Origin: an uncultured Alphaproteobacteria bacterium
Lineage (GTDB): Bacteria; Pseudomonadota; Alphaproteobacteria; Rs-D84
Assembly (NCBI GenBank): GCA_934230415.1
Contig: CAKQEW010000001.1
Span: 12,258-76,257, forward strand
Reading direction: 5' to 3'
Length of the DNA: 64,000 nt
Part shown: piece after piece, positions 36,745 to 52,300 of the stretch
Layout of the letters: each line of letters starts with the position of its first letter
Numbering within the stretch: the first letter of the stretch is position 1
Program-made: the position numbers and the translations under genes
Notes under the pieces: model-generated
Database searches by the model: none
Told to the model about the DNA's origin: nothing
What the model saw: only the letters and a program-made list of their open reading frames with translations

Positions 36745-38724
36745 ATGACAGAAAATAATACACACACATATGACGCATCAGATATTCAGGTATTGGAAGG
36801 ATTGGAACCCGTCCGTCTGCGCCCCGGCATGTACATTGGCGGCACAGATGAAAAGGCGTGGCACCACCTGCCAATTGAAATCATGGATAACTCTATTGAC
36901 GAGGCTGTGGCCGGCTTTGCCAAGAAAATTACCGTTAACCTGATTGACGCCACGACAATTGAAATTACCGATGATGGACGCGGAATTCCGGTGGATGAAC
37001 ATCCGAAATACCCAGGCAAGTCCGCACTGGAGGTTATTTTGACCACCCTGCATTCGGGGGGCAAGTTTAATAATAATGTTTACAAAACCAGTGGCGGTCT
37101 GCATGGCGTGGGCAGTGCGGTTGTTAACGCCCTGTCGCGGGAAATGATTGTAACGATTTCGCGCGATGGATACGAATGGCACCAGTCTTTTTCGCGTGGC
37201 AAACCAACAACACCAATGACCCGTGGCGATGCGACAAAAAATCACGGCACCAAGATTCGCTTTACCATTGATGACCAGATATTCGGTGCAAACGCCGTGT
37301 TTAAACCGGTCAAGATTTATCGCATGGCGCGCGCAAAATCGTTCCTGTCGCGCGGTGTTCGTGTTGAATGGCATTGCAATCCAGAATTACTGACCGACGA
37401 TATGAATATCCCGGCAGATACGACGTTTTATTACCCGGGTGGCGTGGCAGATTTCTTGGATGAAAAAACCCGTGACAAGCCGCGCATTTTGCCAAAAATT
37501 TTCAGTGGCAGTGTTGATTTCCCAGACGATACCGGCCGCGTAGAATGGGCGCTGACTGTGCTGACCGACGAAAATGGTGCGGCGTCTGACGATGGATTTT
37601 TTGCATCATATTGCAACACGATTGCAACGATTGATGGTGGCACCCACGAAACCGGGTTCAAGGCCGCAATTACCAAGGGAATAAAGGCATACGGGGAAAA
37701 AATAAACAACAAATCCGCGGCGTCTATTATTGGCGATGACGTATTTGATTCTGTGGCGGCGATTGTTTCTGTATTTTACAAGACCCCACAATTTTTGGGC
37801 CAGACCAAGGAGAAATTATCCAACCCTGAAATTGCACGTTACACCGAAAATGCGCTGCGCGACCCGTGGGAAATTTTCCTGGCATCTGATCCGAAAACTG
37901 CAAATGCATTGTTGGATTTTGTGGTAAACCTGGCAAACGCCCGTATCAAGACCAAACAGGTCAAAGATATCGCGCGCAAAACCCCAACCAAGCGCGCACG
38001 CATGCCGGCGAAATTGGCGGACTGTTCCAAACACGGGATTGACGGTACAGAATTATTTATCGTTGAGGGGGAATCGGCGGGTGGTACCGCAAAACAGGCA
38101 CGCGACCGTGCAACCCAGGCGATTATGCCCCTGCGTGGCAAGGTTTTAAATGTTATATCTAATTCCGACGAACGATTCGGCGCGAACAAGGAATTAAACG
38201 AACTGATTGACATTATCGGCGCCGGCACGGCCAAGGATTGGGATGATTCCAAATTGCGTTATGAGAAAATCATCGTCATGACCGATGCCGACGTTGACGG
38301 CAGCCATATTGCATCACTGCTGATGGCATTTTTCTATCAGCATATGCCACAATTGATTTACGGTGGACATTTGTACCTGTCATGCCCACCACTGTATAAA
38401 TTCACATGCGGCACAGAATCATTTTATGTGGACAGTGATGAAGAACTGGACGCCCTGCAAAACGGCAAATACAAGAATAAAAAGGTGGAAATTTCCCGAT
38501 TCAAGGGTCTGGGCGAAATGATGCCGAACCAATTAAAGGAAACAACCATGTCACCCAAGACGCGGCGTCTGATTCGTGTTGAATTGCCACCGCGCACGGA
38601 CGATGGCGCCGAAGACACGGAAAAAACACGCACAATCGTGTCTGAATTAATGGGTAAAAAGCCAGAATTTCGTTTCCGCTTTATCACCGAACATGCCCAG
38701 TTTGTCAAAGATTTGTTTGTCTGA
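36745..38724 (+). CDS. parE: DNA topoisomerase IV subunit B
   Basis: GHKL ATPase and TOPRIM domains (EGDSAGG-like LFIVEGESAGG). 659 aa, lacking the GyrB-specific insertion. Confidence 0.8.
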   Translation: MTENNTHTYDASDIQVLEGLEPVRLRPGMYIGGTDEKAWHHLPIEIMDNSIDEAVAGFAKKITVNLIDATTIEITDDGRGIPVDEHPKYPGKSALEVILTTLHSGGKFNNNVYKTSGGLHGVGSAVVNALSREMIVTISRDGYEWHQSFSRGKPTTPMTRGDATKNHGTKIRFTIDDQIFGANAVFKPVKIYRMARAKSFLSRGVRVEWHCNPELLTDDMNIPADTTFYYPGGVADFLDEKTRDKPRILPKIFSGSVDFPDDTGRVEWALTVLTDENGAASDDGFFASYCNTIATIDGGTHETGFKAAITKGIKAYGEKINNKSAASIIGDDVFDSVAAIVSVFYKTPQFLGQTKEKLSNPEIARYTENALRDPWEIFLASDPKTANALLDFVVNLANARIKTKQVKDIARKTPTKRARMPAKLADCSKHGIDGTELFIVEGESAGGTAKQARDRATQAIMPLRGKVLNVISNSDERFGANKELNELIDIIGAGTAKDWDDSKLRYEKIIVMTDADVDGSHIASLLMAFFYQHMPQLIYGGHLYLSCPPLYKFTCGTESFYVDSDEELDALQNGKYKNKKVEISRFKGLGEMMPNQLKETTMSPKTRRLIRVELPPRTDDGAEDTEKTRTIVSELMGKKPEFRFRFITEHAQFVKDLFV

Positions 38725-38912
38725 TGCGCAACTGCACCCACTGTGGGTGCGGCGCGCATTCGGCACGCAACCATTACCCGATGCGGAAAAAATTACTATG
38801 CACAAACCGCAGATTTTGTGATTACAATAAACGCACATTCACACACAATCATACTTGACAATTTTATTTTTTGTACTATGTTATAAACAACAAAAACCAA
38901 AGAGGATACAAA

Positions 38913-39356
38913 ATGGCATTCGGTCCAACACACAAAAAGAAAAACACATATATCGTCAAGGTCAACAACCTGATGGCGGACACATCGGTATTTGAGTTGT
39001 GCAAATATACGCCACTGCCGGTGACCGTGCTGAATGGCAAAGATGTTCAGAAACCACATAATATATGGATGGGCGCCACAAAATTCCCTAACCCTGGGGC
39101 GGTCTGCATGCAATCCGAATTTAAAACAATCGCGCCGGTTATGGGCCAAAAAATTGCGTCCACAGTTATTGAATACCTGGACAAGGCCAACAACCGCCCT
39201 GTTCTGACATTGTTTCCGACATCGGCATATGTTCACGACGGTTATGAAAACGATTATATGTCACACCTGAATCACGCGTCACGTCGCGATTTAGCGCACC
39301 AGATAAAGATTCGTGAACAGATGATGAATCAAATTTTATGCGACCGCCAGAAATAA
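38913..39356 (+). CDS. hypothetical protein
   Basis: ORF with AGAGGA RBS (start at MAFGPT). No recognisable motif. Confidence 0.4.
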   Translation: MAFGPTHKKKNTYIVKVNNLMADTSVFELCKYTPLPVTVLNGKDVQKPHNIWMGATKFPNPGAVCMQSEFKTIAPVMGQKIASTVIEYLDKANNRPVLTLFPTSAYVHDGYENDYMSHLNHASRRDLAHQIKIREQMMNQILCDRQK

Positions 39357-39399
39357 CCTGCACAACGAATAAAGCAAGAAACGTGTCTGCACCCGCAGA

Positions 39400-39610
39400 C
39401 ACGTTTTTTTTACCGTTGCGGACCAAGTTCCCCTCCATGGAACCACCCACAAAATTTGTCCCTGCGGGGGCAATGGCCCCCGGCCTGCGCCGGGGTGACG
39501 AGTTTTTTGTAGATGGTTCCTGATTACAATATTATTTTGTAGACCTGGGCGCCGGTATGACGGAATAAAAATCATTGCTCTCTACTCTTTGCTCTCTACT
39601 CTTTGCTCTC
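39400..39610. repeat. GC-rich intergenic repeat element, copy B, ending in a (actctttgctctct)x3 tandem and cattgctctct
   Basis: Contains ggaccaagttcccctcc (inverted match to 18898-18914), ccacccacaaaat, and ggggtgacgagtt. Confidence 0.5.
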
Positions 39611-39616
39611 TAAAAA

Positions 39617-39641
39617 AAGCACCGGCGAATGCCGGTGCTTT
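39617..39641. terminator. Bidirectional terminator (gcaccggcgaatgccggtgc + T-run)
   Basis: Perfect hairpin directly after the stop of the 39658-41055 gene. Confidence 0.6.
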
Positions 39642-39657
39642 TTTATTTATTGCACTT

Positions 39658-41055
39658 TTACTGGATTCCAACACTGAACTCGTCACCCCAACCGGCAACG
39701 GTCTGGCCACCAACCGTGCATTGGATATCCTCAAATCCTTTCTTTATCTGGTTCTTTTTTACAACGTGACTGGTTACCAGACCACCTGTTGTCCCCAATA
39801 CAACCGCCGCAATGGAATCTGATGCCAGACGTGCGGTATTAAATTTACCTTCCTCGTCACGCCATACCGTTACTTTTAACTGGTCTTGCATCCCGCGCAG
39901 TTCACTGACCAATTGCGATACGCGACCGGACGTTGTTGTCTGATTTTCACGCAGGATGGTCGCGGCCTTTTTGACGCATTTGCCACCGTCAAATTCATAG
40001 TCCCGGTCGTTGCATATGCATTCGCCACTTATCCATCGTGCATCAGATGCGGCCTCGCACGGGGCTTTGTTTGCCTTTATGACACATCTGTCATGCGTCC
40101 ATTCCATGTCCACGTCCCGACAACGGCACTGATTATCAACCCAGTATGCGACATCGCCGCCAACCGCCACACAGCGTTCATACGCCAGCGTGGTTTCGGT
40201 CTTGACACAATTGCCGGTGGCGTCGCGTTCACTGCCGTTGGTGCAATCGCATGTACCATCGGTCCCCAATGTCAGGTTTTTATTTGCATCGCATACGCAT
40301 GCATTGTTTTTCCATTCGCCACCCGATTGTGTACATATTTTGCTTTTTTCTTGTTCAGTGGCGGCTCTCTCCTGTTCTGCCTGAATAGTGGCAGCCGTTT
40401 TTTTGCATTGTTTTATGCTGGGATCCCATTCATAGTCAGCGCTGATGCATTCACATGTCTTTCCGTCACCGGATGTCCGCATAAAGGCGCCATTACATTC
40501 GCACGCACCATTGCCCCAGGTGCCACCCGTGTTGGAACATGCGCGACGGGCCGCAGATTCAGTTTCAGAAACACATTTCCCACCAATATTTTGGTAACCA
40601 GATTTGCATGCATACCCCAAACAAACCGTTCGGCCTGGAACCATCGTGTATGACGAACCATTTGTCCTAACATAGTCTACAAAATCTGGATTGTATACTG
40701 CTTGCAGTGCATTTGGGTCATTCGCCAGCTCCATTTGTCCACCATCTGTACATTGTTTGATTCTGGATGGTTTCCACTCGTTGTCATACATAAATTTTCC
40801 GCGATGACATTCATATAGATAGTTGGAATAATATCCTCCACCGTTGCGAATTTGTGCGGGACCAATAACCGCAACAGTGTCAAGATTATGACAATATTCC
40901 CCCGCACACAGGTAACAGCCAACATCTGGCACGGCCAATACCTTGTCATTACTTTGATTACACTGACTATCGTTTACTGCTATGCATCCGAATTTGTTTG
41001 CATTGGCATTGCCAACAGATAAAAACACCATCAGTATAAATAATAATTTTTTCAT
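39658..41055 (-). CDS. secreted cysteine-rich modular protein with conserved ~95-aa C-terminal module (paralog A)
   Basis: Signal peptide MKKLLFILMVFLSVGNANA. Repeated Cys modules (GGxWxNxACxCxxN...). C-terminal 95 aa nearly identical to the gene at 41235-42407. Confidence 0.6.
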   Translation of the reverse strand: MKKLLFILMVFLSVGNANANKFGCIAVNDSQCNQSNDKVLAVPDVGCYLCAGEYCHNLDTVAVIGPAQIRNGGGYYSNYLYECHRGKFMYDNEWKPSRIKQCTDGGQMELANDPNALQAVYNPDFVDYVRTNGSSYTMVPGRTVCLGYACKSGYQNIGGKCVSETESAARRACSNTGGTWGNGACECNGAFMRTSGDGKTCECISADYEWDPSIKQCKKTAATIQAEQERAATEQEKSKICTQSGGEWKNNACVCDANKNLTLGTDGTCDCTNGSERDATGNCVKTETTLAYERCVAVGGDVAYWVDNQCRCRDVDMEWTHDRCVIKANKAPCEAASDARWISGECICNDRDYEFDGGKCVKKAATILRENQTTTSGRVSQLVSELRGMQDQLKVTVWRDEEGKFNTARLASDSIAAVVLGTTGGLVTSHVVKKNQIKKGFEDIQCTVGGQTVAGWGDEFSVGIQ

Positions 41056-41234
41056 AATGTCTCTCTCGTTCTTTGGTACAAGGGCCCATTTATATTATCG
41101 TAATTCTATCATAATTTTGTCGTTCATACAACGCCGAAATAATGTTATTTATTTTTGTGTAATTGCTTTTTGCATTTGGTTGGCGCGCTAATTTATGATA
41201 AAATCACATATAATAATGCAGGGGAAAATACATC

Positions 41235-42407
41235 ATGAATAAATTATGGCTGTTTTTGTTTATCGCACTGATGCCGGTGGCGGGATTTTGTGTGGACAGC
41301 GATGTTACACGTGCTAGCATGCAAAGAATTAGCAAGCACGAACATATGCCATACAGTAAATTTCATGTGCTGTTCCCAGACCAGATACAATATCAAGCTT
41401 TCATGGATGACTCGCCCGAATTTTATTCTGCATATGAATGTGGCTGGGGCGACATAAAGGTGGGCAACACAGTCAAATTAGGTGCAGGCCATGTATTCGA
41501 TGGGCGAGTAATTGATCACGATGTTCGCTATCTGTGTACCAGTAGCGGTTGGGTTTCGGATAACAGTAAAACGACTAAAAACAAAACAGAAGCGAATGGC
41601 GGTGCGGCCGCGTGCAGTCTGCAGATACGTAGTTTTACCGACACATCTGACTATGACATGGATGAATATTTATACCAGGATTCTGGTACGTGGGAATTCT
41701 ATGCATCGTCACGTGTGCGGCCGGTTGGTTCTGCGGTCCAGGTATATGAATGCAATGGGCGCAGCAATGCCCCCAGTGCGGCATGTGGTGTTGGCGCAAA
41801 AATTATACTGAATTCGGGTGCTGGGATTGGAAATCAGACGGTCGCCGAAAAGGGTGAATTTGTATTTGAATGCACAAACAACAGTAAGATAAAGAGTGAC
41901 AGCTATAAATGGCAATATACCAAGATTGTGCCCCGGTGTCCGTATGTTTCTGGAAATACCCCCACGTCAGAGGCAATCAATGGGCGCACACTGTATTTTA
42001 TGTCTGATTACAATGTGTATTGTGGGGATGTGTACCAGGTCGCCACCCAGGCCGAGGCCGATAACCAAATGGAATATGTTAAAACGGCAACGGCGACGAT
42101 AAACACCAGTGTCAGCACTGGTCCCAATACGGCGTCTGGTCGCGTAACACAATTGGTCAGTGAACTGCGTGGGATGCAGGACCAGTTAAAAGTGACGGTA
42201 TGGCGTGACGAGGAAGGTAAATTTAATACCGCACGTCTGGCATCAGATTCCATTGCGGCGGTTGTATTGGGGACAACAGGTGGTCTGGTAACCAGTCACG
42301 TTGTAAAAAAGAACCAGATAAAGAAAGGTTTTGAAGATATCCAATGCACGGTTGGTGGTCAAACAGTTGCCGGTTGGGGTGACGAGTTCCGTGTTGGAAT
42401 CCAGTAA
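41235..42407 (+). CDS. secreted cysteine-rich protein with conserved ~95-aa C-terminal module (paralog B)
   Basis: Signal peptide MNKLWLFLFIALMPVAGFC. Unrelated Cys-rich N-terminal region. C-terminus SGRVTQLVSELRGMQDQLKVTVWRDEEGKFNTARLASDSIAAVVLGTTGGLVTSHVVKKNQIKKGFEDIQCTVGGQTVAGWGDEFRVGIQ. Confidence 0.6.
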   Translation: MNKLWLFLFIALMPVAGFCVDSDVTRASMQRISKHEHMPYSKFHVLFPDQIQYQAFMDDSPEFYSAYECGWGDIKVGNTVKLGAGHVFDGRVIDHDVRYLCTSSGWVSDNSKTTKNKTEANGGAAACSLQIRSFTDTSDYDMDEYLYQDSGTWEFYASSRVRPVGSAVQVYECNGRSNAPSAACGVGAKIILNSGAGIGNQTVAEKGEFVFECTNNSKIKSDSYKWQYTKIVPRCPYVSGNTPTSEAINGRTLYFMSDYNVYCGDVYQVATQAEADNQMEYVKTATATINTSVSTGPNTASGRVTQLVSELRGMQDQLKVTVWRDEEGKFNTARLASDSIAAVVLGTTGGLVTSHVVKKNQIKKGFEDIQCTVGGQTVAGWGDEFRVGIQ

Positions 42408-42425
42408 ATGTGCAATAAATAAAAA

Positions 42426-42452
42426 AACACCGGCATCCGCCGGTGATTTTTT
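42426..42452. terminator. Terminator (caccggcatccgccggtg + T-run)
   Basis: Hairpin with TTTTTTTT after the stop at 42407. Confidence 0.6.
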
Positions 42453-42493
42453 TTAAGAGCGTGCGGCCGTCTCCGCTGGCGCACTATCTATCT

Positions 42494-43318
42494 TTATCGG
42501 CGTTCCAACGCGGCCATATGTTGCAGTATTGCCTGGTATTCTGCCTGGGCCTGGTCATATACATCTGAATCAATATAATCACGGCTGTCCAACGTAATCT
42601 GCAATCTGTCCAGCGCATCTTCCATGCGTTCACGTTCGGCGGCAATTGACCGCGATTCCGCCACAACATAACTTGGCACAATCGGTGTTGCGGCGCCCCG
42701 CCCTGTTATCGGCAAATATGGACGCACACCGTCCGGATGACGTTTTGCAACCGCATCTGCAATAGATGCACGCAGCCCACCACGTTTGCGTTCAAAATCC
42801 TTGACATTTTGGCGCGCAACCGCCGCGATTCCATCGCGCAGGCATGCCAATTTTTTATACGTTTTGTTTGAATGCCCATTTTCCTGTTCAATGCGGACGT
42901 ATCCATTTGCAGATACCGGCAATTCATCGCGCCATGCATTGTTTATCGGGTTCGCATTCAGCGACATATAGTCAACCAGCGTGCCGTGAACACTGGCCAA
43001 TACTTCATCCTGGAAATTCGCCACATCTGTGCGGCAGAAATGGTAAATGTCATTCTTGCCATTGTGCACGAATGGCGACACGGTTCCAAAGCGCCCCGGA
43101 TTATACGACATTTCGCGCCACAGTGCCCCACAAATCACGTCGCCATCAATCCGTCCCACCAATAACGGAACAGATGTAATCGGCCGGTCATGGTTGCGAC
43201 TGACCATTATCTGGCCGTATGCCTGGCCCAACTTGCGCGAGGTCAACATACCAAAGTACGGACGATCCACATCGTACTGCAATATAATTTTTATCTGATT
43301 ATCTGTTAATCCTGACAT
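42494..43318 (-). CDS. hypothetical protein
   Basis: 274-aa ORF with coding-like composition. No recognisable motif. Confidence 0.45.
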   Translation of the reverse strand: MSGLTDNQIKIILQYDVDRPYFGMLTSRKLGQAYGQIMVSRNHDRPITSVPLLVGRIDGDVICGALWREMSYNPGRFGTVSPFVHNGKNDIYHFCRTDVANFQDEVLASVHGTLVDYMSLNANPINNAWRDELPVSANGYVRIEQENGHSNKTYKKLACLRDGIAAVARQNVKDFERKRGGLRASIADAVAKRHPDGVRPYLPITGRGAATPIVPSYVVAESRSIAAERERMEDALDRLQITLDSRDYIDSDVYDQAQAEYQAILQHMAALERR

Positions 43319-43429
43319 ATGGGCAACTCCATCTTCACACTATAAATATAATACATATTTATATTTTGTCAATATAAGGATAACAAAAGACACTGTCCGC
43401 ACGTAAATGCGGACAGCGCCGTGTGTGAC

Positions 43430-45016
43430 CTACTGTTCTGCGCGGGTGAATGCCCCGTGGTCCAGCATATCGCGCACCGCGAAATGCTTTATCTTGCGCG
43501 CCGATGTTTGCGGTAATTCTTCCTCTGTAATCGCAAAGTGTTTTACCCACTTGTACGGTGCAATTTTCAGATTAGACGCCTTTAACAGCAACGCCACACG
43601 CGCAACTGTGGTACCTGGTTTAACCTGGAATACGGCAAATGGCACAATCTTGCCTGCGATGACATATTCAAACACCGCCGCCGCCAAGATTTCTTCATTT
43701 TGCAGATACAGGTCTTCCAGTTCATCAGGGTACACGTTTTTACCACTGTCCAGGACAATCACCTGTTTCTGGCGACCCTTGACAATCAGGCGACCATATT
43801 TATCCAATTTGCCCAAATCGCCCGTTTTAAACCATCCGTTTTCAAACGCAGCCGCATTGGCATCATCGTTATCCAGGTAACCCGGCATAACCATGTTGCC
43901 ACGCATCCAGATTTCGCCCACACCATCACGGTCTGGGTTGTGAATCTGGATTTCATTGCCCGGCAATGGCCCCGCATAATACATGGAACCATCCGCACGA
44001 CGAAATGCAAAGTTAAAGTTCGCCGGCCCTGTTGTTTCGGTCAGACCATAGCAATCACCAACCACAAAATCCAAACTCTCAAAGAATTTACGTATTGTTG
44101 GCTTCAGGGTTGCACCCGCCGATACCAGAACCTTGGTATTGCCGCCGAATATTTCATGGACTGGTTTGGTAACCTTGTCCACGATGCACCCCAAACCAAT
44201 TGCGCGCAACACGCGACGCGATGACATTACCATGCGCATAATCGTGTACATATGCTTTTCCCGCGCAGTGTCCACAATCTTTTTATAAAAACCTTCCCAA
44301 ATACGGGGAACGGCGGGGATAACCTCTGGTCGGTACTGCTTAAAATCTTTCAGGAATTCACGCGGATTCAAAATCGGCTGCAACAGCAACTGGCCCCGCA
44401 AAATAATCGGTGCGATGATATTAATGACCACACCATATATGTGATACAGCGGCAAGAATCCATAGAACGTATATCCCGGATGAATCACCGGTGTATAGAA
44501 CAATGCCCCATCTGCCAACGACAGCAGATTATTGTGCGTCAGACCCACAACCTTGGGATTGCCGGTTGAACCCGACGTGAACGACAGCATCGCGATATCT
44601 TCGCGGGAAACATCAGCGGCGACAAAATCTTTTTCGTCTGTATCGTCCACTGATTCAATGTCGTACATTTGCGGTCCACCATCAATAAAATGTGACGTTT
44701 GCGCCATTGCCAATTTGCAATTTGTACGCGCCATCATATTCAGGTGTTCAGATTGGGACAATCCGGTATCCAGCATCAGCGCACGCGCCCCCTGGGACAA
44801 AATAGCAAAATACGTTTTGATAAATTCTGGGGTGTTACCCGACAGAATCGCGACCGTATCGCCCTTTTTAATACCAAATTTTTTCGCCAATAAAACAGCA
44901 CGCTGTTTTACCTTTTTTAACAAATCTGCATATGTTTCGTTCTGTCTGACAAAGAAAATACGGTCTTTATTCTGGGAACACACATCACGCAGCATTTCAT
45001 ATACATTTTTCATCAT
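43430..45016 (-). CDS. long-chain-fatty-acid--CoA ligase (AMP-binding enzyme)
   Basis: AMP-binding motif SFTSGSTGNPKVV. ~530 aa FadD-like. Confidence 0.8.
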   Translation of the reverse strand: MMKNVYEMLRDVCSQNKDRIFFVRQNETYADLLKKVKQRAVLLAKKFGIKKGDTVAILSGNTPEFIKTYFAILSQGARALMLDTGLSQSEHLNMMARTNCKLAMAQTSHFIDGGPQMYDIESVDDTDEKDFVAADVSREDIAMLSFTSGSTGNPKVVGLTHNNLLSLADGALFYTPVIHPGYTFYGFLPLYHIYGVVINIIAPIILRGQLLLQPILNPREFLKDFKQYRPEVIPAVPRIWEGFYKKIVDTAREKHMYTIMRMVMSSRRVLRAIGLGCIVDKVTKPVHEIFGGNTKVLVSAGATLKPTIRKFFESLDFVVGDCYGLTETTGPANFNFAFRRADGSMYYAGPLPGNEIQIHNPDRDGVGEIWMRGNMVMPGYLDNDDANAAAFENGWFKTGDLGKLDKYGRLIVKGRQKQVIVLDSGKNVYPDELEDLYLQNEEILAAAVFEYVIAGKIVPFAVFQVKPGTTVARVALLLKASNLKIAPYKWVKHFAITEEELPQTSARKIKHFAVRDMLDHGAFTRAEQ

Positions 45017-45129
45017 AATGATTATGCTCTCTTTGTTAATTAACCCGGGTAACCATTACCCAGACCTATAACCACTATAATCATTTTTTCCCAGGAAACA
45101 CAACCTATTTTATGCATGGGGACACTCGG

Positions 45130-45930
45130 TCAATATGTGCACATGCTGGTTTCTATCTGGAATGTACCCTGCGCATCGTAATACGTTCCCGCCGGCAGAT
45201 AGCAGCTGCTCTGGGCGGTGGCGCCGGCACTGGATGTTCCGGTTGCCAATGTTGTCTTGGCCACATCGGTATAAACGCCCGTGGCACTGGGGCATTTTGT
45301 ACACGATGACGCCCCGGTTGTCGCGGAATATGTCCCCGCACTGCACGTCGTGCATGATATGGCAACGCCCGCCGACGCCGTTCCCGCACGACACTTTGTG
45401 CACCCCAGCCCAGATGCACTGTCACTGTTGATGGCCTGGACATTGCGCGATGCTGGATAATATCCAGCGGCGCACGCATATATATCCTGGTATTCATCAG
45501 ACGTGCTGTATCCACCAACCCCCGCCCTGGCGCAACTGAAAAAATATCCACGTGGCGGATTTACCGCCCCGCTTGAACTGGATGATGACCAGGACAATAA
45601 CTGTGACCGGACAGAATTACAATCCGATTGTGTGCTAAAACATATAATCCAACGACTGCTGGGGATGTTTTCTGAATCCTGATTTGTGGCCAGGTACAAT
45701 CCACCATCTGGGATACAATATACATATGAGCCTGTACCAATTTCTGTTGATTTAACACACCACCGTGCCACAGTGTCACAAAAGCTGCTGCTACTGGAAC
45801 TCTCGTACGTGCCACACGTCTGGCTGCAATACACACGGCTGGCCGCAGACGCCGCACCAAACATCATCACCCCCGTCACGATTATTGCAAAGAAAACCTT
45901 TCTCATTATGACGCCCCCACATTTATTCAT
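45130..45930 (-). CDS. secreted Cys/Ser/Thr-rich protein with furin-like CxxC...G.Y repeats
   Basis: Signal peptide. Repeated C-x2-C-x-x-GT(Y/A)S modules (CTKCRAGTAS, CTTCSAGTYS, CTKCPSATGVY). Confidence 0.5.
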   Translation of the reverse strand: MNKCGGVIMRKVFFAIIVTGVMMFGAASAASRVYCSQTCGTYESSSSSSFCDTVARWCVKSTEIGTGSYVYCIPDGGLYLATNQDSENIPSSRWIICFSTQSDCNSVRSQLLSWSSSSSSGAVNPPRGYFFSCARAGVGGYSTSDEYQDIYACAAGYYPASRNVQAINSDSASGLGCTKCRAGTASAGVAISCTTCSAGTYSATTGASSCTKCPSATGVYTDVAKTTLATGTSSAGATAQSSCYLPAGTYYDAQGTFQIETSMCTY

Positions 45931-45954
45931 AATAAATAACCGCCATATGGAAAC

Positions 45955-46200
45955 AGGCGGTCGGGTGAGTTCGAAAATCAGTTAGTGATGATTCTGTTGG
46001 TCTTTCGGTTACCCGTGTTTTATATACCAACAGCCCCCCGACCGTTCGTCAGGGACGACCATCCCAGTGCAGAAGCACTGAAACGTCGGATTACAGTGCT
46101 TTCGCACCACACTAACAAGGCTTTCGACAGCCCGAAGCCACATCCCTATGGTTTCACAAGAAATAATACCCTAAAAAACACTTTAACGCAAGCCATCTGA
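45955..46200 (-). ncRNA. candidate structured RNA / 5' leader (GC-rich, nested helices, GAAA and UUCU loops on minus strand)
   Basis: Long-range pairing ggtcggg...cccgacc enclosing ctgttgg...ccaacag. Hairpins gtgc-gaaa-gcac and cagtgc-uucu-gcacug when read on the minus strand. Not matched to a known family by eye. Confidence 0.2.
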
Positions 46201-46284
46201 AAAAATCTGGGGTTGATATAGGAATTTTTTTTGATACAGTTTGCCAAAAATTCACGAAACAACACGCATAACAGGAATAAACTC

Positions 46285-46899
46285 ATGAACTTTGCAAACG
46301 ATAATATGGTGATGCCTGAATCAGAATTGAACGCAATGCAAGCGCGCATTGAAGGCCACATGACCCAGATACTGAATGACCTGGGGATTGACACCGCGCA
46401 CGATCACAATACACGTGAAACCGCACACCGTATCGCAAAAATGTGGGTACGCGAAAAATTTAATGGCCGCTATGTCCCCGCGCCAAAGATAACAATTTTT
46501 CCAAATGTTCAAAACATTGATCAATTGATGACGGTCGGCCCCATAAACGTGAAATCTGTTTGTTCACATCACTTTGTTGATTTCACAGGCCGCTGTTGGA
46601 TTGGTATTTTGCCCGGGAATAAATTAATGGGACTGTCCAAATATGCACGCATTGTTGATTGGTTCGCGCGCCGCCCACAAATCCAAGAAGAATTAACCGC
46701 CCAAATTACAAACTGGATTTCCCAGAATTTGGAACCACGCGGGGTGGCGGTCGTTATTCGCGCAAAGCATGAATGTTGTTCATCGCGCGGAATCCAAGAT
46801 ACAAATATGGAATTTTTGACCACAGAAATTCGCGGATGTTTTCGTAACAACCCCAGTATCAAGGATGAATTTTATAAACAAATTCAATTAACGTTATAA
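46285..46899 (+). CDS. folE: GTP cyclohydrolase I
   Basis: SVCSHHFV zinc-binding signature. Start at MNFANDNMV with AGGA RBS. The ORF opens at 46231. Confidence 0.9.
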   Translation: MNFANDNMVMPESELNAMQARIEGHMTQILNDLGIDTAHDHNTRETAHRIAKMWVREKFNGRYVPAPKITIFPNVQNIDQLMTVGPINVKSVCSHHFVDFTGRCWIGILPGNKLMGLSKYARIVDWFARRPQIQEELTAQITNWISQNLEPRGVAVVIRAKHECCSSRGIQDTNMEFLTTEIRGCFRNNPSIKDEFYKQIQLTL

Positions 46900-47086
46900 A
46901 AGTGTTTTTTAAAACATCATACAACACGTCTGGGCCAGGATATAACACATAACAATACCGGCATCACGTCTTATACGACATTGTTCAGATACAATATGTG
47001 ACAACTCTTGCATAATTTTCCCCCATTGTTTGCGGTTTGTGGGCCGCGACCGACCTGCCCCAATTATCCGCCATGGGGACAGATGG

Positions 47087-47335
47087 TCAGTTGCCTTGTG
47101 CCCCCGAAAAGAATTTTGTCAGACCAGTGATATTTTCGTTCATCGCCGATAATATTTTGGCAATGCTGCCTGTGGACGGCCAACGTGGCTGGCCATATTT
47201 TGACCAACGCTTGCTCTTGTTAAAAATGGTCGGGTCCAGACCACTGCGACGCGCCAATCCAGAACAAGACAAATGATGTTCACTGGCAAAGCAATCAATT
47301 GCATACCAAATATCATTATGTGTCATTTTTATCAC
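47087..47335 (-). CDS. small HTH (Cro/C1-type) transcriptional regulator-like protein
   Basis: 82 aa. ...HLSCSGLARRSGLDPTIFNKSKR resembles a phage-repressor-type HTH. Confidence 0.35.
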   Translation of the reverse strand: MIKMTHNDIWYAIDCFASEHHLSCSGLARRSGLDPTIFNKSKRWSKYGQPRWPSTGSIAKILSAMNENITGLTKFFSGAQGN

Positions 47336-47624
47336 CTTTTGTTTTCTTGGTTTGTATTCACACTATAAACCAATGATGGAAAAATTCGGCTATACTGAAT
47401 TTATATCTGGCCGGTTATAAATCGGGGCCGGCGGGCAAAAATCCCAGGAATCCGGGCGTTTTATGGGTATTTTTGCAAAAAAGCAGAGATTTATTTCTTA
47501 CGCTTTTTAAAAAAAATCTCTCTTTTTAACTGTTTTTTGAGATTAGATTCAAGTATAATTAGAACATAGACACATTGTCGCTTGTTTTATTTTTTTCTAT
47601 ATCTGTTCCTAAAGGAGTTGCATT

Positions 47625-48527
47625 TTGTCCACAATAAAAACTAAATTAACATTGTTAAAAGAATTACTGGCACTGAAAGAAGTTATTGATGCAGGACAGA
47701 TTCAAATTGCGGCAAATAATAACGGAATAAAGCATTCTAATTTATCAAAAATGATTTCTGATTTGGAATCACGTATGAACGCAACATTGTTACAACGCAC
47801 CCCCACCGGGTGTTTGGCGACAAATGCAACACCAGAAATATATTCACACATTGAAACAATATCCAAGGCATTGGATGCGATACTGGACGTTACCAGTCCA
47901 CACGAAGAATTGACCGGATACATATCTATTATGGTTGCCGAAGGATTGGTTGGCAGTTACCTGTTACGCGACCTGTCAAAATTCTATGCCATCCACCCGA
48001 AAATCCGCCTGGATTTATTAACGAATCGTCAACAGAATTTATCCAACGTTGAACTGGCAATCGTGGATGCGCGTTCTAATAATACAATTCTGGGTAAAAT
48101 ATTGTACAGAATGCTTGTCAAGGCGCACTTCTTTGCGTCCCAACAATACCTGGATGCGCATGGCATGCCTCGCGATTTGGATGATATGCTGGAAAATTTT
48201 GACATATGCATGTACCAGCCATATCTAAATACACCAGAATTTGCATTCCTGGCAAAACGGGCACGCAAACTGAACACCACCACCGATTCGGTTGGTATGA
48301 TATTCCGCCTGATACATGATGGCGATGGGTTGGGCCTGTTGCCCGGATGGTCTGTGCCACGTGAACCATTGTTGGTGCGCGTACCAAACATAGACGTGGA
48401 ATACGAACATGTTATTGTGGTCGTATGTAATCCAAAGCTGGCCGATACACCAAAAATTGTGGCGTTTAAAAAATTCTTTGAACATTTCTGTACCCAGCAT
48501 AATATAAACATAGAACGATTGGATTAG
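47625..48527 (+). CDS. LysR-family transcriptional regulator
   Basis: N-terminal wHTH (LKEVIDAGQIQIAANNNGIKHSNLSKMISDLES) plus C-terminal substrate-binding-like domain. Confidence 0.8.
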   Translation: MSTIKTKLTLLKELLALKEVIDAGQIQIAANNNGIKHSNLSKMISDLESRMNATLLQRTPTGCLATNATPEIYSHIETISKALDAILDVTSPHEELTGYISIMVAEGLVGSYLLRDLSKFYAIHPKIRLDLLTNRQQNLSNVELAIVDARSNNTILGKILYRMLVKAHFFASQQYLDAHGMPRDLDDMLENFDICMYQPYLNTPEFAFLAKRARKLNTTTDSVGMIFRLIHDGDGLGLLPGWSVPREPLLVRVPNIDVEYEHVIVVVCNPKLADTPKIVAFKKFFEHFCTQHNINIERLD

Positions 48528-48538
48528 CGCAGGTTCAC

Positions 48539-49021
48539 ATGTATACAGCACAATATAATTCACCGATTGGCGTATTAACATTGGCGGCAACGCGTGATGC
48601 ATTATGCGGCCTGTGGATTTGTGGCCAGAAATATCATGGCACAACCGATGGTGCGGCGCGTGATACGGACAACATCGCATTGCGTCGTGCCATGCATTGG
48701 CTGGATGAATACTTTGCGGGCCGCGCCCCAGAAATCAATTTTAATATTAATCCCACAGGGACCGTATTTCAGCGGCGTGTATGGCATGAATTAAGCCTGA
48801 TTCCACACGGGCAAACCGTAACATATGGCGATATCGCACACCGCATCGGTTGCAAATCCGCGCGCGCGGTTGGTATGGCAATTGGCCACAACCCGATTTC
48901 AATTATAATCCCATGCCATCGCGTAATTGGCGCAAACGGCAAACTGACCGGATATGCCGGCGGAATAAAAACAAAAGAAAAATTATTAAAACTGGAACGC
49001 GGTGCTATGCGCGCCAAATAA
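48539..49021 (+). CDS. ogt: methylated-DNA--protein-cysteine methyltransferase
   Basis: Active-site IPCHRVIG motif. Confidence 0.85.
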   Translation: MYTAQYNSPIGVLTLAATRDALCGLWICGQKYHGTTDGAARDTDNIALRRAMHWLDEYFAGRAPEINFNINPTGTVFQRRVWHELSLIPHGQTVTYGDIAHRIGCKSARAVGMAIGHNPISIIIPCHRVIGANGKLTGYAGGIKTKEKLLKLERGAMRAK

Positions 49022-49706
49022 CCGACGCAAACATTGCATTTATGGCATTGCGCAGATTGTCATCATTAAAAAACTGGTCACGCTGGGCGGGCGTTGTACC
49101 ATGTTCATTATCCTCAAAATGTGGAATGTATTTCTGGATGGCAATTTTTGCCACACCACGGGCATTTAAATCGCGCGTTATTTCCATTAAATCCAGTTTT
49201 GTTACAAATCGCGGGTCGCATGTAATACGAACCTCATAATCCTTGCCGGTGGCCTGCCATATATCCAGACTGTGTATCATGCGGTCATGTGCGATATTTT
49301 GCCCCGCCAGCGCACCATATTTATCACGCGTTGTTTTATAATCCAATCCAATCCAATCAACCGTATCCGCCGCACGCTGTAAATTTTCGGGATAAAATCC
49401 GTTTGTATGCAGTCCGATTTTGAACCCCAGTTCACGTACGCGCCGCATATAATCAATTGCGGCATCACCCTGCATTAACGCCTCGCCCCCGGAAAAGACG
49501 ACCGCCTCTAACTTTCCAACGCGGTCGCGCAACCAATCCAGAACTTTGCCCGGGTCATATTCACCATCGCCAACATTCAACAAATGGGGATTGGAACAAT
49601 ACACGCACCGCAACGGACACCCGCGCAGGAACAGCACCGCCGCCAATTTCCCTGGATAATCAATTGTTGTGAACGGGACCAATCCCCCAATTTGAACGTC
49701 TGGCAT
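49005..49706 (-). CDS. nrdG: anaerobic ribonucleoside-triphosphate reductase activating protein (radical SAM)
   Basis: CxxxCxxC (CPLRCVYCSNP) radical-SAM cluster motif. Adjacent to nrdD. Confidence 0.85.
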   Translation of the reverse strand: MPDVQIGGLVPFTTIDYPGKLAAVLFLRGCPLRCVYCSNPHLLNVGDGEYDPGKVLDWLRDRVGKLEAVVFSGGEALMQGDAAIDYMRRVRELGFKIGLHTNGFYPENLQRAADTVDWIGLDYKTTRDKYGALAGQNIAHDRMIHSLDIWQATGKDYEVRITCDPRFVTKLDLMEITRDLNARGVAKIAIQKYIPHFEDNEHGTTPAQRDQFFNDDNLRNAINAMFASVIWRA

Positions 49707-49710
49707 TTTA

Positions 49711-49890
49711 TTATGCAGCCTTTTTCAACAATTCGCTGTGACGCAACCCAGTGGTCAGGCTGTTCGCCTCTGTGAATGTTTTTCTTTCACAGAATTCAGA
49801 ATACTTGCCAATGTTAAAACCAGACACTGGTCTGATAAATCCCATAGAACGCGAGAATACTTCACATGGTGTTCTTGTTGCTGCCTGCAT
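49711..49890 (-). CDS. small ORF (59 aa) resembling the detached glycyl-radical C-terminal segment of NrdD
   Basis: Manually translated as MQAATRTPCEVFSRSMGFIRPVSGFNIGKYSEFCERKTFTEANSLTTGLRHSELLKKAA. Strong GGGAGGA RBS. RSMGF...NIGK resembles the NrdD C-terminal RVCGY...NRGK glycine-radical region. Below the 60-aa ORF-track cutoff. Confidence 0.45.
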   Translation of the reverse strand: MQAATRTPCEVFSRSMGFIRPVSGFNIGKYSEFCERKTFTEANSLTTGLRHSELLKKAA

Positions 49891-49935
49891 AATTATTTCC
49901 TCCCTTTCGTTTATTTTTTGTAATGCATGGTTATT

Positions 49936-51975
49936 TTATTGTTCGTCTGTGCCATTTTGATTTGCGGCAATTTCCGCATCACATTTCGGACAGAATTCGT
50001 GACGTCCCGGCAAATATCCGTGTTTCGGACATATTGAAAACGTCGGGGTCAGCGTCATATACGGAATCTTGTAGTTTTCAAAGATTGTACGTACAATTTT
50101 CTGGGCGGCCTCGCCACTGGACACAGGTTCCCCCATGTACAGGTGCAACATTGTGCCACCGGTATATTTACGCTGCAGTTCTTCTTGGTGTTCCAGGGCG
50201 ACAAACGGATCGTCCGTGAAATTCACCGGCAATTGGGTTGAATTTGTATAATATGGCGCATCGTGCGTTCCTGCCGTGATGATGTCTGGGAAATTCTTGA
50301 CATCGGTCTTGGCAAAACGGTACGAGCAACCCTCGGCTGGTGTCGCCTCCAGATTATACAGGTTGCCGGTCTGTTCCTGGAAATTAGCCAGATTTTCACG
50401 AATAAAGTCCATCACATCCAGAACCAACTTCTTGCCCATTGGGGTCGCGATATTTTCACGGTCCCCTGTAAAATTACGTACCATTTCATTTGCGCCATTC
50501 ACACCAATGGTTGAAAAATGGTGGTTCCAATTCCCCAGGTAACGACGCGTAAATGGGTACAGGCCACGTTCCATGTTCTTGGAAATAATCTTACGCTTAA
50601 TTTCCAGCGAATCGCGTCCCAAATCCAGCAACCGTTTCAGTTCACGGAACAAACCATCGCGGTCACCCTTGTGCATATACCCCAAACGCGCCAGGTTAAT
50701 CGTAACCACGCCGATTGACCCTGTTTTTTCCGCGCTGCCGAACAGACCACCACCACGCTTTAACAATTCACGTACATCCAGACGCAGACGGCAACACATA
50801 GAACGCACATCCGTCGGATTCAGGTCAGAGTTTAAGAAATTCTGGAAATTCGGAATACCATACTTTGCCGCCAAATCAAACAATGGCTTTACATTCGGGT
50901 GTTCCCATGGGAAATCATCCGTGATGTTGTATGTCGGGATTGGGAATGTAAATGGACGTCCCTGGGCATCGCCTTCGGTCATAACCTCCAAAAACGCCTT
51001 GTTAATTGTGTCCATTTCTGCCTGCAGGTCACCATACGTAAAATCAACCTGCTTTTTACCAATAAATGGATGCTGGTCACGCAAATCCTTTGGACATGTC
51101 CAGTCAAATGTAAAATTGATAAACGGCGTCTGGGTTCCCCAACGGCATGGCACCGCACAGTTAAATATCAATGTCTGCATTGCGTTTTTAACATCCGCAT
51201 ACGACAGGTTATCAATTCTGACATATGGTGCCAAATACGTATCCACAGACGAGAACGCCTGGGCCCCCGCAAATTCATTCTGTAACGTACCCAAGAAATT
51301 CACCATGTGCGAAATCGCGGTCGCCATATGTTTGGCCGGTTCGCACTGCAGATATCCTGGGACACCATTGAATCCTTCGTACAGCAATTCGCGCAATGAC
51401 CATCCGGCACAATAGCCCGTCAGCCACCCCAGATCATGAATATGAATTGCGGCGTTCTTGTGTGCCTCTGCGATTTCACGCGGATACAGATTCAACCAAT
51501 ATTCCGCGGTCACACGTTCACTGGTGCGCAAAATCAGGCCACCAATTGAATATCCGATGTTTGCATTTTCCTTGATACGCCAATTTGACCCACCGACATA
51601 GCCTTCTATGACCTCTACTGCATCAACGTACGAATCGCGAATTTCACTGCGTTTCTGGCGATAAATAATATATGATTCGGCGGTCTTGTATGCATGGGCA
51701 TCCATCAGCATTTGAATAACAACATCTTGGATTTGTTCAACCGATGGAACCTTGTCCGCATATTCCGCATCCAGTTTATTCAGCACATTTTGTGTAACAA
51801 CTGCAATCTGGGAATCCTGGATTTCATGTGTAACTGCAACCGCCTTGGCAATCGCATCATAAATCTTTTTCGCATCAAACGGAACTGTTTCACCGCCGCG
51901 TTTTTGAACCGCCACCAGTTTTGTGGTCAGTGTTGGGATAACCTGTATTTTCGTTTCGTTCAATGTTTCAGACAT
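49936..51975 (-). CDS. nrdD: anaerobic ribonucleoside-triphosphate reductase (class III) large protein, ending after the zinc-ribbon
   Basis: ATP-cone N-terminus. Class III core with SMCCRL. Ends ...CPKHGYLPGRHEFCPKCDAEIAANQNGTDEQ with no RxxGY glycine-radical motif. Confidence 0.85.
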   Translation of the reverse strand: MSETLNETKIQVIPTLTTKLVAVQKRGGETVPFDAKKIYDAIAKAVAVTHEIQDSQIAVVTQNVLNKLDAEYADKVPSVEQIQDVVIQMLMDAHAYKTAESYIIYRQKRSEIRDSYVDAVEVIEGYVGGSNWRIKENANIGYSIGGLILRTSERVTAEYWLNLYPREIAEAHKNAAIHIHDLGWLTGYCAGWSLRELLYEGFNGVPGYLQCEPAKHMATAISHMVNFLGTLQNEFAGAQAFSSVDTYLAPYVRIDNLSYADVKNAMQTLIFNCAVPCRWGTQTPFINFTFDWTCPKDLRDQHPFIGKKQVDFTYGDLQAEMDTINKAFLEVMTEGDAQGRPFTFPIPTYNITDDFPWEHPNVKPLFDLAAKYGIPNFQNFLNSDLNPTDVRSMCCRLRLDVRELLKRGGGLFGSAEKTGSIGVVTINLARLGYMHKGDRDGLFRELKRLLDLGRDSLEIKRKIISKNMERGLYPFTRRYLGNWNHHFSTIGVNGANEMVRNFTGDRENIATPMGKKLVLDVMDFIRENLANFQEQTGNLYNLEATPAEGCSYRFAKTDVKNFPDIITAGTHDAPYYTNSTQLPVNFTDDPFVALEHQEELQRKYTGGTMLHLYMGEPVSSGEAAQKIVRTIFENYKIPYMTLTPTFSICPKHGYLPGRHEFCPKCDAEIAANQNGTDEQ

Positions 51976-52280: not shown

Positions 52281-52300
52281 ACACCCCGTACAGGGTGTTT
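52281..52300. terminator. Terminator after dnaA (acaccccgtacagggtgt flanked by A/T runs)
   Basis: Hairpin 20 bp after the dnaA stop. Confidence 0.5.

Follow-up and report, generated by a model that had tools for sequence, protein, structure and literature searches.

A divergent gene pair in Candidatus Enterousia encodes putatively exported, cysteine-rich proteins with exchangeable heads and a shared C-terminal module

The variant-specific surface proteins (VSPs) of Giardia carry CXXC motifs, end in a CRGKA tail of 5 aa, and are drawn from a repertoire of ~200 genes with exclusive expression. Type Vc adhesins of the YadA family combine a Sec signal, a variable head and a coiled-coil stalk with a C-terminal module of ~70 aa. 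In pneumococcal PspA/PspC, Neisseria Opa or PorA and Anaplasma Msp2, hypervariable domains lying between conserved ends are replaced by recombination, and alleles are common across strain or species boundaries. At the DNA level, Salmonella tufA/tufB and the rRNA operons are inverted duplicates that are homogenised by gene conversion, with occasional inversion of the segment. Here we describe a pair of bacterial genes that can be compared with each of these systems. Like a Giardia VSP, each protein has a predicted signal peptide, after which comes a long, variable, Cys-rich ectodomain assembled from short Cys motifs; the membrane-proximal part towards the C-terminus is strongly conserved and contains a hydrophobic helix, and the protein closes with a short tail that is invariant. 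The source is in both cases an anaerobic gut organism. However, the organism is a diderm bacterium rather than a eukaryote, and the proteins have no sequence or family relationship to VSPs: their motifs are of the form C..W..CxC..C, their tail is 33 aa long, and only 1–3 genes per genome are seen.

Candidatus Enterousia (Rs-D84) are widespread, uncultured bacteria of the gut. Their genomes are under 1 Mb, and a partner-dependent lifestyle has been proposed for them (PMC12306168). The DNA analyzed here is a 64,000-nt stretch from a member of this group (order Rs-D84), referred to below as the window. As a sequence-only reading had described, it contains two divergently oriented ORFs encoding Cys-rich proteins with signal-peptide-like N-termini. 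Gene A (39658..41055, minus strand) encodes a protein of 465 aa with a predicted signal peptide, a Cys-rich head, a predicted coiled coil and the C-terminal module, and gene B (41235..42407, plus strand) a protein of 390 aa with a predicted signal peptide, a head of a rarer type and the same module. The 179-bp AT-rich gap that separates them (41056..41234) presumably carries the promoter and the ribosome-binding site of each gene; scans of this region gave promoter matches at consensus level only. The exact protein encoded by gene A was found on 6 contigs, and because the A-B pair occurs in independent assemblies it is no assembly artefact. Homologs of gene B are few in a large protein database; B-type orthologs are present at loci L003, L082, L083 and L085. 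No description of these proteins was found in the literature.

Many further genes end in the same module. An exhaustive profile search of a protein database, with clusters defined at 50 % identity, returned 950 cluster representatives at E ≤ 1e-3, 929 of them at E ≤ 1e-10. The module was C-terminal in all 150 of the matches listed, and each of 87 ORFs from 80 loci had both a signal-peptide-like N-terminus and a C-terminal end of the form ..WGDEFxVGIQ. All genome matches were to gut Alphaproteobacteria or Ca. Enterousia metagenome-assembled genomes, and the family is so far known only from the gut Alphaproteobacteria of Ca. Enterousia (Rs-D84). The module was absent from phage and plasmid collections. 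Module genes usually lie between parE and dnaA, a position conserved in most species. At the loci fetched there were 1–3 copies per genome, which argues against a large antigenic-variation repertoire.

The 3′ ends of A and B form the inverted repeat that had been noticed in the sequence. An inverted-repeat search placed its arms at 39605..39932 and 42133..42460, each 328 nt long and 95 % complementary to the other, with a spacer of 2200 nt. An arm comprises the last 92 codons of its gene, the stop codon and a terminator; ~53 nt of 3′ flank is included on both sides, with a hairpin-plus-T-run structure that resembles a bidirectional intrinsic terminator (39613..39644 3′ of A and 42428..42445 3′ of B). 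The 18 mismatches between the arms leave the central 134 nt without any, and the encoded copies differ by 2–3 aa over the last 92 codons. According to tblastn, these are the only 2 copies of the module in the window. Comparison with locus L003, where the heads are orthologous to those of the window (45 % and 67 % aa identity), revealed that module copies are more alike within a genome (95 % nt identity in the window and 88 % in L003) than between orthologs (74–76 %). In other divergent pairs the module copies are 98–100 % identical, and in strain L084 a derived block is common to both paralogs and found in that strain only. Intragenomic gene conversion keeps the two module copies alike.

Recombination between the module copies also inverts the two-gene segment. 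The gene order is ParE-D-A(-)-B(+) in the window, L083 and L084, and ParE-D-B(-)-A(+) in L003, L006, L082 and L085. Both isomers, whose existence had been proposed from the repeat, are found within one species: L083 and L085 are conspecific, with flanks of 98.5–98.9 % nt identity, and carry a 3.3-kb segment in opposite orientations. The inversion is coding-neutral, because each head re-joins an equivalent module and terminator and the promoters move with the heads. Thus, although both isomers occur even in a single species, as would be expected of a programmed inversion switch of the shufflon or invertible-element type that alters which protein is made, the anatomy of the locus is such that neither the coding sequences nor the promoter-gene linkage are altered. 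Moreover, each arm is a 328-nt stretch of coding sequence rather than a short recombinase site, and no recombinase adjoins the pair at any locus examined, the sole integrase-like ORF in the window being 35 kb off. We therefore regard such a switch as very improbable. The homogenised inverted copies and their inversion by the same homologous recombination are instead much like tufA/tufB and the rRNA operons, with the differences that only the 3′ 328 nt are homogenised in the A/B pair while the rest of the genes diverges fast, and that the inverted segment, at just 2.2–3.3 kb, comprises nothing but the two heads.

Among strains of the same species, head domains are replaced. Between the window and the conspecific L084 (ParE 99.9 % nt identical), codons 1–180 of A are only 45–60 % identical at the nucleotide level, whereas codons 90–180 of A are 88–96 % nt identical between the window and another species whose ParE gene is 86 % identical. 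The strain-variable part is an N-terminal cassette at 40528..41012 (minus strand, codons ~15–176) that has no nucleotide homology to its counterparts in the conspecific L084 and L081, against flanks that are 94–98 % identical; a breakpoint at 41013 is common to both comparisons. Conserved ends, recombinational replacement of the hypervariable part and alleles common across strain or species boundaries are all shared with PspA/PspC, Opa/PorA and Msp2, which belong to another protein family and use another anchor. None of the 80 loci showed silent donor cassettes close to the genes. Variable regions that are exchanged and joined to a constant region had led the sequence-only reading to consider a polymorphic-toxin-style arrangement, and the swapping of heads between conspecific strains upholds that part of it. 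The remainder does not hold: the polarity is reversed, since it is the N-terminal part, following a Sec signal, that varies; Pfam, NCBIfam and PADLOC-independent scans of the heads found no toxin domain; neither immunity genes nor orphan cassettes were seen nearby, the neighbours being housekeeping genes; and phage and plasmid collections lack the module. A system of polymorphic toxins or effector cassettes is therefore already largely refuted, and we find it scarcely credible.

The heads of A and B had been called unrelated. They indeed share no significant similarity, with no BLAST match at E ≤ 1e-5 and about 21 % identity when a global alignment is forced; however, both are composed of domains that belong to a single superfamily of mosaic heads, so that the term is too strong. 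The head of A, in which repeats had been recognized from the sequence, contains four of them (39976..40539, minus strand, C173–C360), each a C..W..CxC..C unit, with helical linkers between them. The Cys and Trp columns of these repeats are nearly invariant in the family alignment, and the AF2 model of the A head shows beta-hairpin repeats with pLDDT > 90 over roughly residues 90–370. The head of B has 9 Cys and is followed by only the last ~17 residues of the helix that precedes the C-terminal module. Across the family, the number of Cys was even (from 2 to 38) in 178 of 196 mature heads. We take the heads to be modular, fast-evolving and fully disulfide-paired. A pN/pS of 0.16 for gene B between strains argues against blanket positive selection. 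In their tandem arrangement of small disulfide-stabilised beta-hairpin modules the A-type repeats resemble EGF-/TNFR-like ectodomains such as that of Plasmodium Pfs25, and the best Foldseek matches of the A head are to EGF-like or TNFR-like ectodomains. These matches are weak, with none reaching E ≤ 0.001, so of the eukaryotic likeness suggested earlier only a hint survives. The EGF and TNFR models of Pfam did not match the two proteins or the further family members scanned, and the conserved Trp and CxC spacing set the A-type repeats apart from EGF/TNFR modules. Scans of both proteins and ten further family members against Pfam, NCBIfam and PHROGs produced noise only, and a phmmer search of the PDB with the B head returned nothing meaningful.

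The boundaries of the module were taken from a conservation profile built from 213 unique sequences. Its core is 68 aa in both proteins, running from W398 to Q465 in A (39661..39864, minus strand), where it includes invariant columns, and from W323 to Q390 in B (42201..42404, plus strand). In A the order of elements is WRDEEGKFNTARLASDS, a hydrophobic helix, KKNQ and a 33-aa beta tail. The hydrophobic stretch that had been pointed out as a possible anchor, a role that remains plausible, is a 19-residue small-xxx-small segment (39760..39816, minus strand; S414–V432, SIAAVVLGTTGGLVTSHVV) preceded by D413 and followed by K433-K434. In the family alignment it is preceded by a conserved ..ARLASDS and followed by KK. 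The core is preceded in A by a helix (aa 364–393; 39877..39966, minus strand) that is predicted to form a coiled coil: it is helical in the AF2 model and has heptad hydrophobic spacing, with hydrophobic positions at -18, -15, -11, -8 and -4 relative to the invariant Trp throughout the family and a periodicity peak at 100–110 degrees. Each module has exactly one Cys, which is unpaired and sits in the beta tail. A generic, previously described domain was not found: the module and the full-length alignment were each used as profile queries against the PDB, with 0 matches, and 33 module sequences searched against Pfam and NCBIfam at E ≤ 10 returned noise only. The AF2 monomer of the module alone has a pLDDT of 56 and is therefore unusable for a fold search; within the full-length model the module scores 32–50. 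The module is a sharply bounded domain that had not been annotated before. Two candidate assignments were discarded. A match to the NCBIfam model 'invert_tail', a putative C-terminal anchoring domain, sat on the lipoprotein signal at the N-terminus of P0042 and was irrelevant, and the Gly-zipper outer-membrane lipoproteins (SlyB/Pcp, Rick_17kDa_Anti) were set aside given a strict lipobox in 0 of 211 members and no match to a Gly-zipper model.

How the module might relate to a membrane is less straightforward. Summed on the Hessa scale, the 19-mer scores about +4.2 kcal/mol (about +4.5 kcal/mol for the segment of A), compared with -1.8 to +1.6 kcal/mol for transmembrane helices encoded in the same window, and it is predicted to be a poor stop-transfer sequence. 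By the positive-inside count, the charge is +1.0 in its N-terminal flank and -0.1 in its C-terminal flank. For a type-I inner-membrane reading, the D and the KK on either side of the 19-mer would be suitable and a cytoplasmic tail would agree with its unpaired Cys, but the Hessa score is unfavourable. This polarity, too great for a usual inner-membrane anchor, is one of several features that would suit a miniature type-V-like (YadA-type) outer-membrane anchor, in which four short strands oligomerise into a barrel and the head is displayed on the surface. As in type Vc adhesins, a predicted Sec signal, a variable head and a coiled-coil stalk are directly followed by a C-terminal module, here of about 68 aa, and the proteins of both groups are assumed to be oligomeric adhesins. 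The distance to the C-terminus is nearly fixed (median tail after the helix 33 aa, range 25–75), the tail shows beta periodicity and includes a motif, GxxFxV, resembling the beta-signal of outer membrane proteins (OMPs), and the organism is diderm, as indicated by TolB, an AsmA-like protein and a secretin encoded in the region. Against this, none of the 33 module sequences matched YadA_anchor or another OMP model even at E ≤ 10, and the hydrophobicity of the 19-mer has a period of 4 residues, which is helical and not beta. The C-termini, which follow the pattern [VI]G[IVLM][QRHK], end in Q, R, H or K rather than in an aromatic residue, unlike the ..IRYEF terminus of a likely OMP encoded elsewhere in the window. 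Finally, a disulfide-rich passenger with up to 38 paired Cys is hard to square with export through a narrow barrel. Membership in the YadA-type group was rejected on profile, periodicity and C-terminal residue, and we consider an anchor of this kind unlikely.

The ..ARLASDS motif, the hydrophobic helix and the KK that follows it, in proteins with an N-terminal Sec signal, also recall a cleavable C-terminal sorting signal (LPXTG, PEP-CTERM or GlyGly-CTERM-like). The helix would then hold the precursor in the inner membrane only transiently until a dedicated enzyme cuts it, and the head would be moved to the surface, for example via the nearby secretin pathway. A tag strongly conserved across diverse cargo would be in keeping with this, as would the secretin and TcpQ-like gene in the same region. 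However, known C-terminal sorting signals end directly after the basic cluster, whereas here a conserved 33-aa beta tail follows the KK, and the conserved 68 aa together with the coiled coil are far larger than a sorting tag. No CTERM or sortase-type model of NCBIfam matched, and the surrounding 6–10 kb at the 80 loci showed no linked partner gene and none for a sortase, exosortase or rhombosortase. Cleavage of this sort thus seems improbable.

Module genes have a conserved neighbour of 147 aa, here called D147 (38913..39356 in the window, plus strand), which adjoins them at at least 40 loci. At most of these it is convergent and lies 55–110 nt past the stop codon of the module gene; at about ten loci it lies 2–6 kb away and/or in another orientation. 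The window shows the convergent arrangement, with D147 300 nt from the stop codon of A. Searches of Pfam, NCBIfam, PHROGs and the PDB gave no match to D147, and a phmmer search of the PDB with a 274-aa ORF likewise gave nothing meaningful. The frequent association of D147 with the module gene raises the question of whether it could be an antidote. On that account the proteins would be secreted, the module would be a glycine-zipper membrane-inserting or pore-forming element directed against partner or competitor cells, and the heads would bind receptors; a marginally hydrophobic small-xxx-small helix, like that of membrane-inserting peptides, and variable heads on a constant C-terminus would be compatible with such a role. 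But D147 has no transmembrane segment or known immunity fold and is present in one copy only per gene pair, a pore domain of only 68 aa would be very small, the conserved position between parE and dnaA is core-gene-like, and the module is not carried on plasmids or phages. Taken together, we judge a pore-forming function quite improbable.

The model that we favour, to which we give as a whole slightly better than an even chance, combines exported variable heads, an oligomerising envelope anchor and recombining tails. A and B would be two ancient paralogs, each exported via a cleavable Sec signal peptide. The module, comprising a juxtamembrane motif, a glycine-zipper-type 19-residue helix with Asp and Lys-Lys flanks and the beta tail, would act as an oligomerising membrane anchor tethering the variable head to the cell envelope. 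The membrane holding the helix could be the inner or the outer one with about equal probability. We know of no route by which a non-lipoprotein helix is put into the outer membrane, and this counts against the anchor model, as do the unfavourable Hessa score, the low AF2 confidence in the module and the lack of a linked partner or sorting gene at the loci examined. The heads may function as variable adhesins or antigens of a bacterium that is thought to be partner- or host-dependent. The genetic part of the model is seen directly in the sequences: conserved ends, on the side of the signal peptide and promoter and on the side of the module, flank head cassettes that are swapped between strains and species, and homologous recombination at the inverted copies flips the head-to-head segment with both coding sequences intact. 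A bolder extension, which we put forward as a doubtful speculation, is that the module and coiled coil constitute an unrecognised diderm anchor, and perhaps exporter, of folded, disulfide-rich, eukaryote-like ectodomains. Bacteria would then have an equivalent of the variant surface proteins of protozoa, with heads that attach to a host or partner cell and are kept polymorphic, via cassette exchange, by balancing selection that is immune or partner-driven.

In any case, a family of disulfide-rich proteins that had not been annotated is kept near dnaA in genomes of less than 1 Mb, and recombination keeps it polymorphic. The sources of this polymorphism are head alleles shared across species, inversion within species and gene conversion of the putative anchor. 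The locus is also a clean natural case in which concerted evolution affects part of a gene and is coupled to inversion. The module is a new, sharply delimited domain, and its membrane topology could reveal a new anchoring principle. Given their conserved place and visible recombination, these proteins are the most obvious candidates for a surface interface of Ca. Enterousia with a host, partner cell, phage or immune system.

Genes A (39658–41055, minus strand; 465 aa) and B (41235–42407, plus strand; 390 aa) are arranged head-to-head and encode proteins in which a variable, Cys-rich head is followed by a near-identical C-terminal module. A repeat search of the window returned a single long inverted repeat. 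Its arms, at 39605–39932 and 42133–42460 (328 nt each, 95% complementary), are separated by 2200 nt. This bears out the claim of the sequence-only reading that the two divergent genes end in inverted copies of one module. Each arm runs through the last 92 codons of its gene, where the two proteins differ at 2–3 residues, and the stop codon into ∼53 nt of 3′ flank with a hairpin-plus-T-run terminator. The arms differ at 18 positions, with no mismatch in the central 134 nt, and no third copy of the module was found in the 64-kb window. Because independent assemblies carry the same A–B pair, the arrangement is real and not an assembly artefact. A short tandem repeat (TGCTCTCTACTCTT, ∼2.3 times, window ∼39557–39604) lies just outside the left arm, between a 147-aa gene (D147) and the A terminator.

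The module defines a sharply bounded, new protein family. When 1.84 billion cluster representatives were searched exhaustively with an HMM, 950 matched at E ≤ 1e-3, and since 929 of these reached ≤ 1e-10 and 726 reached ≤ 1e-30, the family boundary is sharp; in all matches listed, the module was at the C-terminus. A match to a known generic domain, which would have spoken against the sequence-only reading, did not turn up in Pfam, NCBIfam, PHROGs and PDB profile searches. Neither the A nor the B protein matched Pfam or NCBIfam, 33 module sequences compared with the same collections at E ≤ 10 returned only noise, and ten further diverse family members matched no curated model. PHROGs and PDB sequence-profile searches (module and full-length alignment) were likewise negative, and the module was absent from phage and plasmid collections. 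Every protein retrieved with a module-only query was metagenomic, and the few that carry a name come from “Alphaproteobacteria bacterium” MAGs. Scanning one genome per GTDB species yielded 317 confirmed module-coding stretches, and all 78 loci shown were from gut MAGs assigned to Candidatus Enterousia, uncultured Rickettsiales or Alphaproteobacteria. Members of Enterousia (order Rs-D84) have genomes under 1 Mb and are missing most biosynthesis and respiration, and dependence on a partner has been proposed (PMC12306168). We found no literature on these proteins, and the Enterousia paper does not mention them. With genes for TolB, an AsmA-like protein, a secretin and a TcpQ-like protein, the window organism is a diderm.

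All 87 complete carrier ORFs from 80 loci (278–782 aa) start with an MKK-plus-hydrophobic Sec signal peptide and finish with ..WGDEFxVGIQ, and Cys makes up 5–8% of most of their heads. A lipobox was found in none of the 211 full-length members. The only lipobox-bearing member seen was P0042, a minimal protein (137 aa, on an 877-bp contig) in which a short linker joins a canonical lipoprotein signal (LVSC) to the coiled coil and module. The heads are mosaics built from a few recurring Cys-containing modules, and single-linkage clustering placed 75 of the 87, A included, in one superfamily. The B head is of a rarer type with few relatives, yet it has one domain in common with other members. The A head contains four C..W..CxC..C repeats joined by helical linkers, modelled by AlphaFold2 as beta-hairpin repeats (pLDDT above 90 over about residues 90–370) and followed by a long helix at residues 364–393. 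Foldseek found no significant match to this model in the PDB; the weak best matches were all EGF-like or TNFR-like ectodomains, with Pfs25 at the top (E = 0.017). Once the predicted signal peptide is taken off, the cysteine count (2–38) is even in 178 of 196 heads, which supports the view that the heads are fully disulfide-paired and exported. As every module has exactly one Cys, the invariant tail Cys would then be free or engaged in an intermolecular bond. Five members (P0062, P0086, P0117, P0125 and P0128) have an extra Gly/Ala-rich hydrophobic region within the head (e.g. ..KTTWKDVAIGAGGGATAAAGTAAVVNAIPVFGQIAYG..), often preceded by a low-complexity Pro/Thr-rich stretch; this region had no Pfam match.

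Module anatomy was drawn from 213 unique sequences. Upstream of an invariant Trp, hydrophobic residues recur at −18, −15, −11, −8 and −4, and this heptad pattern, together with a periodicity peak at 100–110 degrees in the pre-module helix, indicates a putative coiled coil, and hence that the protein would be an oligomer. The juxtamembrane motif WKxxEGxFNTARLASDS follows directly, and then, between an invariant Asp and Lys-Lys, a 19-residue segment, SIAGVVLGTAGGLITSxVV. After Lys-Lys comes a tail of 33 aa, near-constant in length (median 33, range 25–75), with beta alternation (I.C.I, F.V.I) and a terminal [VI]G[IVLM][QRHK]. A YadA-type beta anchor was rejected, as three of its defining features fail (profile matches, periodicity and C-terminal residue). 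Hydrophobicity in the 19-mer repeats every 4 residues (small-xxx-small), with little beta signal; this helical periodicity, the Asp–19mer–Lys-Lys layout and the unpaired tail Cys favor an inner-membrane type-I anchor. On the Hessa biological hydrophobicity scale, the segment scores ∼+4.2 kcal/mol (+4.5 for the window's copies) and genuine transmembrane helices encoded in the window score −1.8 to +1.6, so it would be an unusually weak stop-transfer anchor. This weakness, and the need for surface exposure, count against the inner membrane, whereas a location in the outer membrane is without a known insertion route. In AlphaFold2 monomer models the module is of low confidence (pLDDT 32–56), as would be the case for a fold that forms only upon oligomerisation or membrane insertion.

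Most of the loci are positional orthologs, with UvrC, DnaJ, ParE, D147, the module gene(s), DnaA, DprA and PlsY following one another in that order. In at least 40 loci, D147 (38913–39356, plus strand; 147 aa) adjoins a module gene and is mostly convergent with it, starting 55–110 nt past its stop codon; in about ten loci it lies 2–6 kb away or in another orientation, and some loci have it in duplicate. The D147 protein lacks a signal peptide and matched no known family or PDB entry. In these neighborhoods, the family is not linked to any recombinase, sortase-like enzyme or Omp85 gene. In the window's species, a ∼10-kb block (∼42494–52300) encoding a 274-aa ORF, acyl-CoA ligase, GTP cyclohydrolase I, a LysR regulator, MGMT and NrdD/NrdG separates the pair from DnaA (52321–53595); related species lack it, and dnaA directly follows the pair. 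The 274-aa ORF (42494–43318, minus strand) was found only in the window's species (the window, L081 and L084), and searches of Pfam, NCBIfam, PHROGs and the PDB left it unmatched.

Gene conversion between the module copies is ongoing and patchy. Heads of the window and of L003, a locus from another genome, are orthologous (45% aa identity for the A type, 67% for the B type), and the module copies are 95% and 88% identical in nucleotides within the window and L003, respectively, versus 74–76% between orthologs. In other species, the copies are 98–100% identical in divergent pairs and only 78–83% in tandem pairs. In L084, from a strain conspecific with the window (ParE 99.9%, DnaJ 99.8% nt identity), both paralogs carry a derived block, QVEKG for QIKKG, that is absent from the two window copies, and a Ser/Arg difference near the C-terminus stays gene-specific. 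Such conversion accounts for the perfect identity at the center of the arms. The inversion isomers for which the sequence-only reading proposed a check were seen on comparing assemblies: after ParE–D147, the order is A(−) then B(+) in the window, L083 and L084, and B(−) then A(+) in L003, L006, L082 and L085. L083 and L085 are conspecific (flanks 98.9% and 98.5% identical), and between them a 3.3-kb two-gene segment is in opposite orientation, with repeat arms that align both ways. The segment is therefore flipped by recombination between the inverted copies of the module, and a single species can contain both orientations. By anatomy the inversion is coding-neutral, each head and promoter being re-joined to an equivalent module and terminator, which argues against a programmed switch.

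The A head has also been replaced. Nucleotide homology to L084 is lost across 40528–41012 (A codons ∼15–176), whereas codons 240–465 are 91–100% identical. Another close strain, L081, has the L084 allele of the N-domain and the same left breakpoint, at 41013, inside signal-peptide codons. The window's allele shares 88–96% nt identity with the one in another species (L085, L083), whose ParE and DnaJ reach just 86% and 81% identity to the window's; this indicates either lateral cassette exchange or trans-species polymorphism. A-head identities form an allelic series of 100, 72, 68, 67 and 62%, then about 43%. Between the window and L084, synonymous divergence is 0.004–0.008 in ParE and DnaJ and 0.03–0.17 across D147, A, B, the 274-aa ORF and acyl-CoA ligase; pN/pS of B is 0.16. 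In this comparison of 36745–45016, the jump reaches beyond the two genes and points to a region that was either imported by recombination or maintained as a long-lived polymorphism.

Other genes of the window also encode secreted proteins. A 266-aa protein (45130–45930, minus strand) with a signal peptide is likewise Cys-rich (18 Cys); it has CxxC repeats, e.g. CTKCRAGT..CTTCSAGT..CTKCP, and a weak Pfam Ephrin_rec_like match (E 3.4e-4), but not the C-terminal module. Five consecutive secreted Cys-poor proteins (10672–17153, minus strand; 237, 521, 356, 335 and 623 aa), with only weak Alanine_zipper and Collagen matches, could represent a second family of fibrous proteins at the cell surface; in three, an “A..YV(D/N).KA” motif follows the signal peptide, and a “..W..I..” ending is common to the five. 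A 244-aa protein (17217–17951, minus strand) with a signal peptide and no Pfam match at E ≤ 1e-3 ends in ..SVGIRYEF, the canonical OMP beta-signal, and is probably a small beta-barrel outer-membrane protein. A 332-aa ORF (3643–4641, minus strand), ∼35 kb from the A–B pair, has an Arm-type DNA-binding domain suggestive of a phage-type integrase, and no other recombinase-like gene was seen in the window.

The module would act as an oligomerising membrane anchor, its conserved coiled coil, helix and tail resembling a stalk plus anchor. The heads may be variable adhesins or antigens, because they diverge (A heads at 42–45% aa identity where ParE is 96–97% identical) alongside a strongly constrained module, the polymorphism pattern is typical of exposed proteins, and the family is kept in such small genomes. 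As general phenomena, variable surface proteins that share a conserved anchor, concerted evolution of part of a gene and inversions between inverted paralogs are all known. The protein family, its C-terminal module and the disulfide-rich head modules are undescribed, and they belong to an uncultured lineage.
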